Of a stretch of DNA of 49,036 nt, positions 30,001 through 36,000 are shown one piece after another. The stretch's first letter is position 1, and every line of letters begins with the position of its first letter. Location: the IMG/VR virus record IMGVR_UViG_2718217787_000014. One strand, written 5' to 3'. The position numbers are program-made. The DNA is from a virus. Taxonomy: Duplodnaviria; Heunggongvirae; Uroviricota; Caudoviricetes.

Positions 30001-33000
30001 CTGTGGATCTCCTTCAATAGCCACCGCCTGCATCAGTGTGTACGGCGTAATGGCAACCGGTCCGCCGTATGGCTGCCAGCCCTCTTTCAGTTTGTGTGTC
30101 AGCTTTTCCGCAAGGTCTGACGGCGACGCCGCCCTGACAACATCATAGTGTTTAAATGCCATGAATCCTCCCGGCCGGGATAATATTGTGAGTAAAATGA
30201 GGAGCGGGCTGAAGTCCGGAAGTTACAGGACAATGGCAGAAGAGAGACAACAGCCCGCAATACGAAAAAGGCCGCGCTATTGCGCAGAGTGATTACTGTC
30301 GGATATTATTCGCCAGCTGAAATATTACTTCACGTTTTGTTGTTTATTCCTTGCCGCCCGCGTCTCCCTGCGCGGGCTTTTTTTGTCCATAAGAAAGCCC
30401 CTCCGGAGAGGGGCTGGAGAGTGGCGCTATGTGCCATTGCATGGTGCCGGGTGCCTCCCGGTGAATTCAGTACCAGCACCTGAATCCGCGATTATCCCAT
30501 ATACCTACTCGCTGATTGCCCCTCCGCACAGGGGGATTCACCATGCCAGTTTCTTTTAACAAACTCCCCGCAAACCAGACAACAGTCAACCGCCTGAATT
30601 GTGAGACATTTAAAAAAAAGGCCCGCAAAAGCGAGCCAGGGAAAATAAGTGTGGCGCGTTGTACTGGATTCGAACCAGTGACCGATTGCTTAGAAGGCAA
30701 TTGCTCTGTCCGGCTGAGCTAACAACGCAGGATACAGATAATGGACCGCCTTCGGGGACCCGAACTCCGCGCAACCAGCTTCGAAAGCTGGCGCTCTTTC
30801 CTGATGAGCTAATGGCGGTATGTGATGGTGGCCCTTGCTGGATTTGAACCAGCGACCTGGCGATTATGAGTCGCTCGCTCTCACCACTGAGCTAAAGGGC
30901 TGGGTCAAAAAATAATAATCAGATGAAAATCAATAATCAAGCCCTTGCCTGGATACATATCTGTCTGGCGGGAAGCCATAATAGCGGTGAAATACAGAAA
31001 TAAAGTAGGACCAGCTTGAATAACCGCATTTTTCTGCTACAGCCTGTCCATATCCATGCCGGGAACATAACATATTGACAGCAACACGCATCCGCTCTTC
31101 CAGCAACAAGCGACTGAACATGTGCCCTTCATTTTTCAGTTTTATCTTTAACAAACTCTCACTCATATGCAGGCGTAACGCAATCGCACCAAGCGTCCAG
31201 CTTGCTGATATATCTGTCTGAATTATCGCCCTGACTTTGGCACTTATACTGGATAAACATCCACTTAAAAATAATAATATCCGTTCATCTGATTCAAACA
31301 GCGACAGGCATGCCATCATAAGAAACATATCCGTGGTATCTCCGGAAAATCTCTGGCTGGTAATTAAAGCCTCAGCCAACGCAGGGTTGTTGGGTTCCAG
31401 TGACAGATAAAGCGGAACGTCAGTCAGATGAGTTCTTGTCAGCTTATGCTGAATTTCCAGATATTGACTTACTATGGAATGGTTTATATCGAAAATTTTA
31501 ACTTTGCCATAATGCATAAGGAAAAGCGCCCTGATGCATTTGGTGGCCAGAACGACTGAGCCGGGCTTAAGTGACAACGTATCCTTTTCAAGAAAAATAT
31601 TAATTGGGGAGCAAACCATGATAACTGAACAGACAACAACCATTATAATTTTACTTTCATTAGCAATTGGTTAGTTCAATTATAGCCCCAAAAGGTAAAT
31701 TATCATCAACACATAAGCAAAGGACTGACAGGTGCCGCTAACACCCACCAGCCGCCCATTTACCACAAATAAAAAAGCCTTCAGGACTGAAGGCGTCTGT
31801 AACAACCGAACTGATAGTCTGCCAGACCCGCATAACCAGCTGGGTCAGTATTAACTGGCAGCGCTCGCGTGAAAGGTACGTATTCTGCGCAATCTCCCCG
31901 ACCGTCGCCGGTTCGGTGACGCTTAATTCATCAAACACAACTCTGGCGGTTTCTGTCATATCCTGCTGTTTCAGCATGTCTTTTTACCCTTTCCGGTTAA
32001 CGTGACACACCAATAACTCTTGTCGAAAAAGCCAGCAAGCTGAAAGACCTGTATTAATAACTACCAGCACATTTAACGCACTGCGCTACTTTGCGGGCAC
32101 AAAAAACCCGCTCAGAGGCGGGGTCAAGCTATGCGGCGAAATAACCACTCTTAACAGCATACCTGATTTTTTACGTACGTAAATGCTTTGCCGTGCATAT
32201 TTTTCATGCAAATGTCACGTCCTGCTATTTTTCAGTCTTATAAATTTAAAACCATAGAAAAAATCAATTATGTTTTAAAAATGGATAGGTAAAGAATAAC
32301 AAGTGACACAGATTCAAACCAAAATGGAAAAGGGTGGCAACCCACAAACGCCCACTCCACATCCATGACAATCCATACACAACACCAGATAACGTGGCAA
32401 ATAATACAAGTAAAGCACCACCTGAATAGTGATAAAAACCAAACAACAAAGCCGCCACAATTAATGCAACCAATGGAGACGTTACTTCTGATAGCCGTGA
32501 TTGAATATACCCTCTAAATAATGATTCCTCTGCCAGAGACACAAAAAACAAATTAGCCAATATAAACTCTGGCAACCACTCAGGAAAATGAATCTCTGGC
32601 TTTAATCCACCAAAAAAAACAGCCAAAAACAGGATAAGAGGAACAGAGAGCGACAGAGCCCCCCACTTCCACAAAGACACTTCTGATTTTACTTCTTTTT
32701 TAAACAAAGAAGATGTACACAGGACTAACAAAAATGGCACCAGCGCTTTATCAAAATTAAAATACATTGTATAGGGAGTACTTTGAGGGCCAACAGTAAC
32801 AGAATTTAGCACTACAGGATTGTGAAACCCTGGCCATAGATGGAAAAATAATGCTATGGCTGATAAAACTATGCCAACTTCATATATAGATTTAGCCCAG
32901 GCGTTATATTTCCAGTTGAACTTCAAAATAATAAAAAAAACGATTGTAGCAACAAAAAATAACACCGACCAATCAATAATATCATTAAGCACAGCCAGGA

Positions 33001-36000
33001 CAACAGACACCGTCAACAATGAAAAAGCCACTACCTTATGCCAACTGAGAGTTGACAGTGACAGTACTAACACAATCCACATAAGCACTCCTTTTATTTA
33101 ATGATGAAGATTGATTATCAATATTTTCAATTCACCAGGCAACATTTTATCTACCTTCCACAATACATGACCATCAAAAAATAAACATGTTAATTATAAA
33201 CACAGAAAACATAACCCTCATCACTATATATCCCTACCGCATATCCATATCTAACCGGACATTCAGAGCCATAAGCATTCCTTCAATAATACCTTCCGCT
33301 TTATAAAGCCTTTTACCAATAAGCCCATCAGAACATCTATGCTTACGTGCAAGAGCCATAAATGTCATTCCACCTACGTAATAATCCACCAACAAATCGT
33401 GCAAATACTGATTATTCTTGTTTAATCGTGCCATACAACCACAAATTATCATGGCGTCATCATCAGAACACTTAGGACGTGATTTCACTTTAGTCGGGAT
33501 TAATCCTTTAAAACCAGCAGCTATCGAGGGCCATGTTACATCTTCATGATTATTTGCTGCCCATGCCCCCCATCGCTCAAGAACCATCTGGATATCACGC
33601 GCCATCGTTACCACCTCTGATTTCGTAAATCTTCACGCCCAGCCGTCCACCTGGCACAGGCTGACCGCGCACAATATTGATTTCATCAAACTGCTCGTCA
33701 TCAATGAGCACTTCCGCATGCGTCAGCGCATCCAGCGGTGCTTTCAGAATGTTGTCCAGGTCACGGCGGCGCTTATCCGGTGGTTCTGCAATAATTTTTA
33801 TTGCCAGCCGTCCGGACAGGCTTAATTTCAGCCGCTGCTGGCGAACAATAAGCGCCACAGCCCGGCGATAACGCTCACCGGCTTTTGATACAAAATATGT
33901 GCTGCCACGACGTCGCCAGTAGGTGTTCACCGTCGGCGGGTAAGGCAAAACAAACTCTATACGCATCAGTAACCTCTTTTACCCGAGCACGCCGGTTGCA
34001 AAAGCGTGATCAAGAAAACGAAAAATTAAATCAACCTGGGAACCATGCTTTTCTTCGAACGCCAGCGGATCCGCATGAAGCTCGTTGTGATGCTCCCGAC
34101 ACAGCGGTAGCGTGAAAATATCGTGGGATTTTGTTCCCATTCCACCCTGACCATGACCAATCAGATGATGAGGATCGTCCGCTGGCTTACCACAACACGC
34201 ACACGGCTGTGTCTTTACCCAGCGTGTGTATTTCTCATTTACCCAGCGGCGACGTTTAGGTCGTTTCATGAAGGATTTCGGAGACTCCGGATCAACGGCA
34301 ATGCTGACCACCGTCTTTTCCTGTGGTGGGTTCTGTTGCTGGTGGGTGTGAGGCGGTAGCGCAATATTTTTTGTGCGCTGCTTCAGTATGCTGGTGGCGG
34401 TCTGTTCTCCCGGTATGATGTCGCTTTCACGGTATACGGAGCGGATTTTTTCCGCCGGTAATCCCAGAGAACGACGCGATACTGCCTCAGGTAATGCGTC
34501 CACCACCTGATTGCAGACTGCCCACCAGGATAATTCAGCCAGCGATAATTCCCGTTCCTGTATGCCATTCATTGCGTGGCGGATGACGTCAATCATCCAG
34601 GCGGCCAGATTCTGTTGAGCAAGTTGCTCAAGTGATTCGGATGTCTGGTCGCGCAGCTGGTTGTCGCAGTGCCAGCACAACACCATCGCGCCGGTACCGT
34701 AACGATGTATGACAGTTTCGCTGTGATGATAATCACCATGAGGCCACTGGCAGGATTTCACGTGACGTAATAACCAGTCAGACAGTGCACCAGCGCCACC
34801 CGCAGCACGGATCACCCGCTCATCGCTGAAAAATGGCAGTAGTGATTTATCTTCCGCCAGCGGCTGGTGAACGGCAGGTACAACCCCGGACGGCAGAGCT
34901 CGCATGCTTTTTGGTTCCGGCTCCACCAGTATTCTGCCGTTATGGAATGCTGACATTGATTCACGGCCTGGCTTAACGATAACCAGACCGAGTTCCGGTA
35001 CCAGAACAGGTCGAAGTAATACCCGCACATTACCTCCAGATCCGTTGCTGGAATGTGCGGGACGGACGCGGTGGCCGTTCGGAGTAAGGGAGCCTGACGG
35101 AGATTATCCAGTGACGGTAGTCGAGGCTAAGGGCTTTTTTAACCTCGCATCCGCGCCTGCGGTAACACTGAATGAGCCATTCGGCCTGTTCTTCAGTGCA
35201 TGGGGGATGCTGGTACCAGTCAGATTTGAATGCGTGAAAACACCGTCCGCGCCTGCTGGCAAAGACGGCAGAATCATCAGAATTGTATAATTTGGTATCG
35301 TGCGCCATCGGTTGTCTCTGCTGGCGCAGCAGGTGCCAGTTGTTCAGGCTGGCGTGCGAATTGTAAACCAGAATGCCAGGAAAAAACAAAACCCGCCGAA
35401 GCGGGTTAAGTGCGGGTGCGTTGAGGATGCCTGATTCATCAGAGGTGGCGAGGGATTTCTCCCCCGCCAGGTCTCTTACTCCTCAGGTTCGTAAGCTGTG
35501 AAGACAGCGACCTCCGTCTGGCCGGTTCGGACTCGTACCTCGCAGAGGTCTTTCCTCGTTACCAGTGCCGTCACTATGACGGTTAAACAGATGACGATCA
35601 GGGCGATTAACATCGCCTTTTGCTGCTTCATAGCCTGCTTCTCCTTGCCTTTCGGCACGTAAGAGGCTAACCTAGATTTGCCGTTCATAGATTGAGCCTC
35701 AGATTAATGTTAGGCGTCTTGCAGGACGCGTAATGTTAACTGGGGCTTTTCTCTATCTGCCGTTGGTGTTCATGCCCGAGGCAGATAGCCTCAAGCACCC
35801 GCAGCTATTCTACTTAACTTCCCATTACCTCGCCAATATGAAATCGGTCAGAAAGACAGACGTCCCATAAGGACAACAACGGAAAAAGAGATTTTGCTTG
35901 ATGCTATTTACCTCTGCACCATGAAGTTGCGCCAAAATCCCAGTGGTGATAACAGGAATTTGGTTGTTGGTGATTGGGGAAAGAAGTACGTTAGACTGTG

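Follow-up and report, generated by a model that had tools for sequence, protein, structure and literature searches.

Between the late antiterminator gene Q and the tRNA genes of the lambdoid prophage Sp4 of Escherichia coli O157:H7 lie a gene for a putative intramembrane protease of the CPBP family, a small open reading frame (ORF), and a gene for an AraC-type regulator. The question raised by this locus is whether these genes form a single late-expressed cargo island, as a preliminary description had proposed, or several units. The window analyzed here, meaning the whole 49,036-nucleotide stretch of the IMG/VR record IMGVR_UViG_2718217787_000014, is the reverse complement of Sp4, which is termed CP-933M in strain EDL933. 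We consider it likely that the locus comprises three independent units, grouped around a late promoter that belongs to a Q system of the QuuD/Stx type, and not one island.

The 2.5-kb stretch around the cargo genes is 100% identical to many O157:H7 chromosomes. In the Sakai annotation the genes are ECs1084 to ECs1088, ECs1085 to ECs1087 being the trio distal to Q, and the resequenced CP-933M of EDL933 encodes identical proteins at this locus. The order on the minus strand is RusA, Q, the CPBP gene, a 79-codon ORF, the AraC-type gene, three tRNA genes, a small RNA of the STnc100 family, and nanS-p. Every feature of the preliminary description was recovered at its position on the minus strand, and the region does represent prophage cargo next to Q. 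This cargo is ordinary for a prophage, and the novelty is modest, consisting of one unstudied gene and a clearer map of the late promoter. The locus had also been called an AT-rich island, and the AT-richness is real but patchy: the GC content is 37.7% in the CPBP gene, 42.0% in Q, and 42.3% in the AraC-type gene, compared to 51.5% for the window and 53-56% for RusA, DUF968, and nanS-p, but the small ORF (51.2%) does not stand out from the window.

The cassette downstream of the CPBP gene

The features on which the argument turns are as follows.

33234-33614, minus strand: Q (ECs1084), late antiterminator gene of the short, QuuD-like type (Pfam Phage_antitermQ, 174.5 bits)
33114-33142, minus strand: candidate sigma-70 promoter of the CPBP gene (consensus scan)
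32264-33082, minus strand: CPBP/Rce1-like gene ECs1085 (WP_000265265.1), 272 amino acids (Pfam PF02517, 70.6 bits)
32101-32183, minus strand: putative late-promoter cassette, homolog of the PR' of Stx phages (homology and co-occurrence with the Q type)

The Q protein of Sp4 shares 86% identity with QuuD of DLP12 and about 78-81% with the 144-amino-acid Q of Stx1a and Stx2a phages, and it is distantly related to Q21 (PDB 6p18; E 1e-7). Some 80 nt downstream of the CPBP stop codon begins a cassette of 83 bp, headed by the perfect 14-bp palindrome TTTACGTACGTAAA (32183-32170), which overlaps a -35-like TTTACG. A -10-like TATGCT (32161-32156) stands 16 nt after this hexamer and places a predicted transcription start near 32149. 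Downstream of this start lie, in order, a leader that is conserved, GTTAAGAGTGGTTA, the hairpin CCCGCCTCTGAGCGGG (32122-32107), and a run of six T residues (32106-32101). The palindrome occurs once in the window, with 0.07 matches expected by chance when up to 2 mismatches are allowed.

The cassette was present in all eight fetched loci with this Q family (Sp4, RM8082, C8, L014, L016, E21845, DLP12, and UTI89), and it is the sole non-coding element conserved across all lineages with this Q family. In the region downstream of Q in CP-933O, CP-933N, and phiSTEC1575, which possess other antiterminator types, the palindrome was not found with up to 3 mismatches, and homology with Sp4 begins only at the hairpin. 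The cassette aligns with DLP12, E21845, and the Stx2a phage P13374, where it overlaps the 3' end of the gene for the 144-amino-acid Q. When the P13374 start is placed 7 nt after the -10 element, the distance to the T-run of tR' is exactly 258 nt, and 258 nt is the PR'-tR' distance reported for Stx phages (Sy, Lan and Tree 2020, PMC7547250). Because of this homology to the Stx-phage PR', the 258-nt spacing, and the co-occurrence with this Q family, we read the segment 32183-32101 as the putative late promoter PR' together with the region of Q loading and the first terminator, Q being its probable cis/trans partner. The leader is predicted to fold with -14.9 kcal/mol and a z-score of only -1.65; therefore, the fold alone is not evidence and is not decisive.

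In comparison with the PR'-StxS-tR' region of Stx1 and Stx2a phages, the palindrome, the -10 element, the leader, and the first hairpin of Sp4 are homologous. In Stx phages the cassette directly adjoins Q or overlaps it, without a gene in between, whereas in Sp4 the CPBP gene intervenes. Sp4 also lacks the body of the 258-nt StxS precursor and the associated terminator; the module of small ORF and psrA (the AraC-type gene) takes their place, and the 74-nt 3' StxS sequence and terminator were not found in Sp4. A StxS-like block after the first hairpin is absent from Sp4 and C8 and present in RM8082 and L014, which keep it downstream of the CPBP gene. A permissive Rfam search of 30300-33300 returned only tRNAs and STnc100 and no known small RNA between Q and psrA, and the 7-8-mers shared by the region just after Q in E21845 and the Sp4 flanks yielded nothing useful.

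A variant palindrome, TTTACGATCGTAAA, was encountered once inside the Sp4 integrase gene (48975-48988, plus strand). It is the form of the palindrome seen at the late promoter of P13374 and E21845 (L009 4678; L023 3927), and the copy in the integrase gene may be due to chance.

If the cassette is indeed PR', the CPBP gene, located between Q and the cognate promoter, would fall outside the Q-dependent late operon in Sp4. It lies upstream of the PR' homolog, on the early side, and therefore late expression is not expected for it, in disagreement with the late-expressed role suggested earlier. The terminator that had been assigned to the CPBP gene does exist, as the hairpin and T-run at 32122-32101, but it corresponds to the first hairpin of the PR'-homologous cassette. 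The PR' homolog would fire constitutively and stop at this hairpin until Q is made; further downstream would come the dead small winged-helix-like gene and then psrA with its own promoter, both on the stx side of PR'. Given this location, prophage induction should drive psrA in addition to its own promoter. The comparison with the cargo position of Stx phages is not borne out as stated: stx follows the tRNA genes and PR', and psrA alone shares the stx side of the promoter. With the 14-bp palindrome cassette, late promoters of QuuD/Stx-type prophages could be recognized simply from the sequence, and cargo genes in other genomes could be classed as early-side or late-side.

Transcription of the CPBP gene during induction would occur by read-through from Q, because the terminator scan gave no terminator between the two genes. 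In lysogens it is probably transcribed from its own candidate promoter at 33142-33114 (TTGCCT, 17 nt, GATAAT), and a strong Shine-Dalgarno sequence, AAAAGGAG, precedes the ATG at 33082. RM8082 carries the same promoter element as TTGCCA-17-GATAAT (10/12), and the element is also found in C8. The predicted promoter is not conserved in the variants with 59-62% identity; the ribosome-binding site is kept in close variants.

A different placement of PR' would change this picture. The promoter could lie directly after Q, at a TATAAT near 33190, with the CPBP gene in the interval from PR' to the first terminator and expressed in lysogens as a constitutive transcript of ~1.07 kb, the cassette then being a second promoter or a small-RNA gene. 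This placement was set aside because the downstream cassette is the element common to DLP12 and the Stx phages. The TATAAT is kept in Sp4, RM8082, and C8 and aligns with the -10 element of a strong E21845 promoter (TTGACC, 18 nt, TATATT) situated just after Q, and the first strong terminator encountered after Q is the one at 32122-32101, beyond the CPBP gene. However, the TATAAT lacks a -35 element, and the region is not conserved in L014 and L016, whose Q proteins are 79-81% identical, whereas the downstream cassette travels with this Q family and matches the Stx PR' with the 258-nt spacing. Moreover, the gene located between Q and the cassette of DLP12 and ev207 is on the opposite strand, and therefore it cannot be a PR' transcript. 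We regard a PR' directly after Q as unlikely.

Linkage of the CPBP gene to Q

We counted the linkage of these genes in 5,426 complete E. coli genomes. The CPBP gene is present in 571 of them, nearly always in single copy, and each of the 571 has this Q allele adjoining it; the stretch comprising Q, the intergenic region, and the 5' end of the CPBP gene (at least 80% covered) was likewise retrieved from 571 genomes. A distant relative of this Q (82-84% DNA identity) was the only match in 33 genomes, and the two examined did not contain the CPBP gene. The whole 2.5-kb stretch (at least 80% covered) occurs in 539 genomes. The small-ORF and psr module (at least 80% covered) occurs in 724, with several copies per O157 genome, and it is found without the CPBP gene behind other antiterminator types and in at least 185 more genomes than the whole stretch.

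More divergent prophages provide the same association. The CPBP gene of RM8082 is 88% identical to that of Sp4 at the DNA level and the C8 gene is 96% identical; the gene order is Q-CPBP-stx1d in RM8082 and Q-CPBP-methyltransferase in C8, with these genes in place of psrA. The linkage to Q holds down to 59-62% CPBP identity, as the 62%-identical homolog from E. coli (L014) and the 59%-identical homolog from Shigella (L016), the two with an examined context, both adjoin a Q that is 79-81% identical to that of Sp4. Among the E. coli CPBP matches listed, all have at least 55% identity.

The Stx1d prophage of RM8082 (L007, 1987-5341) displays Q, the CPBP gene, the cassette with StxS-like sequence, stx1dAB, and the holin gene, such that a CPBP gene with 88% DNA identity to that of Sp4 is directly upstream of a toxin operon.

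These counts bear on the single island, in which the CPBP protein and the AraC-type regulator would work together and would be transcribed, like stx, from PR' after Q. The two genes are adjacent, on the same strand, and both AT-rich, and 539 of the 571 genomes with the CPBP gene have them together. Each gene is also found without the other. The CPBP gene is tied to the Q allele and not to the AraC-type gene, with stx1d or a methyltransferase gene replacing psr in RM8082 and C8, whereas psr is found without it behind other antiterminators and, as mentioned, in several copies per O157 genome. A promoter homologous to PR' and a hairpin separate the two genes in Sp4, and much of their co-occurrence reflects the clonal inheritance of one prophage. 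A single late-expressed island is thus very improbable and already largely refuted.

Under the arrangement that we favor, with independent units around PR', Q and its DNA target would have to stay together, and a gene lodged between them would be inherited with both. The linkage in 571 of 571 genomes would be seen because the CPBP gene is trapped between a trans-acting factor and its cis site. Other genes occupy the same slot. A porin gene is located between Q and the cassette in DLP12 (E. coli B), in a UTI89 prophage, and in phage ev207, and E21845 has an ORF6N gene and no CPBP gene at this position. In both DLP12 and UTI89 the porin gene reads in the opposite direction, and about 160 nt separate the cassette from the start of the holin gene.

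The porin gene, nmpC in DLP12 and presumably the one named lc in phage PA-2, is a lysogenic-conversion gene located between Q and the lysis genes, and it sits in the slot used by the CPBP gene, between a QuuD-type Q and the palindrome cassette. Both genes encode envelope proteins that are apparently not needed for phage growth. Their orientations and products differ: the porin gene, which lies on the opposite strand, specifies an outer-membrane beta-barrel, whereas the CPBP gene has the phage-sense orientation, follows Q without an intervening terminator, and encodes an inner-membrane protease. It is conceivable, and we suggest it only tentatively, that the gap between Q and its target is a protected hitch-hiking slot and that the CPBP protein is a selected phage-borne protease altering the envelope of the lysogen. 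If so, cargo in this gap would be inseparable by recombination without killing late expression, which would explain the fixed porin, ORF6N, and CPBP genes.

The CPBP protein ECs1085

The ORF spans 32264-33088 when read from a GTG or 32264-33082 from the ATG chosen by PGAP (272 amino acids). The assignments of the CPBP and AraC-type proteins to their families were both borne out by profile searches with scores above the Pfam cut-offs, and for the CPBP protein the match to the Rce1-like family PF02517 covers residues 171-260 with 70.6 bits (cut-off of 22.4). The motifs EESLFRGY, FGFYHY, and FHFGLN described earlier are all present in the translation. The family motifs EExxxR, FxxxH, and HxxxN/D correspond to E185/E186/R190, F214/H218, and H253/N257, and these seven residues are invariant across 23 homologs (48-84% identity). 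The N-terminal half contains conserved motifs that are specific to the subfamily, HLxPGFHNP and MYFNFDKA.

The AlphaFold2 model of the protein (pLDDT 94.7) has about ten helices. Its best fold matches in the PDB are Rce1 (4cad) and SpdC (6u0o; TM-score 0.47-0.51, probability 0.99), which are the two CPBP proteins with solved structures; the E-values are weak, and the sequence identity in these matches is 14-18%. With the known members of the family, i.e. Rce1, SpdC, LyrA, MroQ, and Abi, ECs1085 shares the Pfam match, the three catalytic motifs, and the predicted fold. It differs from them in its low identity to Rce1 and SpdC, in its own N-terminal motifs, and in that a PDB sequence search retrieved no match. 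The product of ECs1085 is apparently an active glutamic intramembrane endopeptidase.

CPBP designates the CAAX protease and bacteriocin-processing family, and some members involved in bacteriocin immunity are called Abi. The proposal that the CPBP protein takes part in abortive infection is not supported by models of known anti-phage defense systems, none of which matches it, and its only basis was the old Pfam name. Protein cluster look-ups returned generic names only. Homologs of the same length with ~50% identity are widespread in Enterobacter, Providencia, Dickeya, Serratia, Pantoea, and other genera. Outside prophages they are stand-alone chromosomal genes without a conserved neighbor (two contexts examined), and no bacteriocin, sortase-type substrate, or kinase gene was found adjacent to the CPBP homologs in the two contexts examined.

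The CPBP unit is at most a candidate moron, that is, an autonomous cargo unit: its promoter is a predicted one, a hairpin terminator is present, its GC content is 37.7% against the 51.5% of the window, and related phages do not have the gene. One could suppose that the gene is a passenger without benefit, kept only by its trapping between Q and the target in a defective prophage. Insertion sequences abound in Sp4, the gene was not found in any sequenced free phage, and its position alone would explain the linkage to Q. Yet, the dN/dS ratio (nonsynonymous to synonymous substitutions) is 0.11-0.30 between five prophage lineages, with synonymous sites near saturation, the catalytic residues are all invariant, and the reading frame is intact in genomes of many serotypes. 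In addition, a 55%-identical copy was acquired beside an unrelated antiterminator. The CPBP gene is intact and under purifying selection, and we judge a useless passenger to be quite improbable.

Another role could be in the lytic program, where the CPBP protein would process or regulate a lysis or cell-wall factor. In Staphylococcus aureus, the CPBP protein SpdC is a partner of the glucosaminidase SagB, and SpdC is one of the two best structural matches of ECs1085. The CPBP gene invariably has the phage-sense orientation and lies shortly before the lysis region, and in L017 a homolog directly precedes the holin gene. Nonetheless, the CPBP gene is absent from related phages that have the same Q and lysis genes, and therefore lysis does not require it. 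SpdC has no catalytic activity, whereas the CPBP protein keeps every catalytic residue, and the chromosomal homologs in non-phage contexts argue for an activity that does not depend on phages. We find a lytic role improbable.

Rather than in lysis, the CPBP protein may work in the inner membrane, its substrate being an envelope component or a peptide, either host-derived or incoming, and it may thereby protect the lysogen through superinfection exclusion or immunity to a peptide toxin. This proposal, drawn from what other members of the family do, is the weakest step of our account, and we hold it as a possibility at best. If the protein does alter the envelope, this function would be carried by prophages of enterohemorrhagic E. 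coli and related serotypes of Shiga toxin-producing E. coli (STEC), including beside stx1d. About one in ten complete E. coli genomes, most of them from O157:H7 and other STEC-associated serotypes, carries ECs1085, which received no mention in the literature searched; queries with ECs1086 and with the Z-numbers near CP-933M gave nothing usable. A microarray paper on RpoS lists Z1346-Z1348 of CP-933M as well expressed, and these tags could not be mapped to the genes studied here and were not used.

Several points weigh against the account given above. In the cassette, the -35 and -10 elements each match the consensus at 4 of 6 positions, the consensus scan did not list it, and both promoters, as well as the transcription start, are deduced from sequence and homology. 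The conserved TATAAT right after the Q stop codon (about 33190) could be a further promoter, with constitutive expression of the CPBP gene. Many of the 571 genomes are clonal O157:H7 or related STEC, so the count overstates the number of independent events. In L017, which has a PF03589-type antiterminator, the 55%-identical CPBP gene follows a promoter-terminator pair just before the holin gene, and this homolog would be a late gene. No PADLOC-DB family matches the CPBP or the AraC-type protein at E-values up to 0.01, and none of the computed results identifies a substrate of the CPBP protein. Finally, a tblastn search with the CPBP protein against 50,697 phage records gave two weak Listeria fragments only; the sequenced free phages in these records do not have the CPBP gene.

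psrA, the small gene, and neighboring features

The features distal to the cassette are listed below.

31738-31977, minus strand: 79-codon ORF ECs1086, frameshifted (alignment with intact copies; PGAP flag)
31771-31794, minus strand: hairpin and T-run where the intact small gene has its natural stop codon (terminator scan)
31679-31706, minus strand: candidate psrA promoter (promoter scan)
30930-31643, minus strand: AraC/XylS-type regulator gene ECs1087 (WP_000261909.1), psrA (Pfam HTH_18 and HTH_AraC)
30652-30901, minus strand: tRNA genes ileZ (anticodon CAT), argN, and argO (ARAGORN, Rfam, Sakai annotation)
28312-30162, minus strand: nanS-p, the downstream flank of the tRNA genes

The 79-codon ORF was confirmed at 31738-31977, but it does not represent a functional gene. 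It results from a 1-bp frameshift in a gene of 65-73 codons, a single G being missing at GTTAT-GCGGG relative to CP-933O and the inducible phage phiSTEC1575-Stx2k, and PGAP annotates 31781-31977 as a frameshifted gene of the TrmB family. ECs1086 is therefore a frameshifted pseudogene of a winged-helix-like protein. The intact copy matches phrog_331, a family of unassigned function, at 3.9e-37; the intact CP-933O copy scores 18.3 bits against Pfam TrmB (E 0.002), below the cut-off of 25.6, and has several weak winged-helix matches. The intact small genes end inside a hairpin and T-run, GCCTTCAGTCCTGAAGGC followed by TTTTTTATTT (31794-31771), which separates the small gene from psrA and is conserved in CP-933O, with a variant form in phiSTEC1575. 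About 2,100 complete E. coli genomes contain the small-gene sequence, and far fewer contain psr.

The AraC-type protein ECs1087 has a C-terminal double helix-turn-helix, matching HTH_18 with 36.6 bits (cut-off of 33.6) and HTH_AraC with 35.3 bits (cut-off of 26.6). Its best NCBIfam match is YdeO (NF007407), over the full length with 104 bits and below the equivalog cut-off of 348 bits, followed by GadX, which indicates a full-length relative of YdeO and not an orthologue. ECs1087 is 91% identical to the copy in CP-933O, which occupies the position reported for psrB (z2104, OI-57), and 89% identical to the copy in phiSTEC1575-Stx2k. The published identity between PsrA and PsrB is 90% (two reviews). 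The gene ecs1087 of Sp4 was named psrA in a 2026 paper from the Tree laboratory, which defined the Psr family (PMC13502914), and there psrA and gadE both go up and down with the small RNA HnrS. The resemblance to Psr/PatE regulators noted in the preliminary description is thus explained, as this part of the locus is already known and is psrA. Among PsrA, PsrB, and PatE, ECs1087 is the same in sequence as psrA, and pchA (ECs1091) is in the same prophage. According to the literature, the Psr family activates gadE and yhiF and represses type III secretion, and the resemblance of ECs1087 to YdeO and GadX fits the reported action of Psr on gadE and hdeA.

Two reviews speak against this identification, as they place psrA at z1789 in OI-50 (CP-933N) and not in CP-933M. 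We found no AraC-type gene in CP-933N of the resequenced EDL933, where a TerB pseudogene and a DUF3927 gene follow the antiterminator gene. The z1789 locus of the reviews may stem from the original assembly. This is the only discrepancy with the published PsrA, and it is one of bibliography.

The candidate psrA promoter (ATGATA, 16 nt, TATAAT) matches the consensus at 10 of 12 positions, the best promoter match in the region, and its sequence is kept in CP-933O and almost unchanged in phiSTEC1575-Stx2k. Where psrA starts is uncertain, with 237 codons according to PGAP and 195 in the Sakai annotation; distant phage homologs of the product match from residue 15, just after the internal Met9. In CP-933O (Sp10; L006 14700-14940), a promoter-like TTGACG is followed about 70 nt later by a hairpin and T-run, between the DUF1133-type antiterminator gene and the small winged-helix-like gene. 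A 66-nt HnrS has been reported from the late regions of Sp9, Sp10, and Sp12, and HnrS might be a short CP-933O (Sp10) transcript from this TTGACG element.

The tRNA genes at 30652-30901 form the right-hand boundary of the psr module. ARAGORN reads 30826-30901 (minus strand) as tRNA-Met with anticodon CAT, whereas genome annotations give tRNA-Ile (ileZ), the usual reading for this phage tRNA. A full-length STnc100-family RNA is encoded at 30385-30575 on the minus strand (Rfam RF02076, 138 bits against a cut-off of 47 bits), between the tRNA genes and nanS-p, approximately the position of stx in Stx phages.

Elsewhere in the window, a second strongly AT-rich patch (30-37% GC) covers 36000-37400. 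It contains the alpha/beta-hydrolase gene ECs1077 (36236-37009, opposite strand), located between the replication genes and hok/sok, and this looks like another cargo gene. The hok/sok module is at 35626-35800 and DicF at 44537-44588. Two IS3-family elements with ALIL pseudoknots (817-933 and 27739-27855) and an ISEc8-like element of the IS66 family adjoining the terminase genes (about 20531-22864) were also identified, and the mobile elements and related features of Sp4 are consistent with a decayed prophage.

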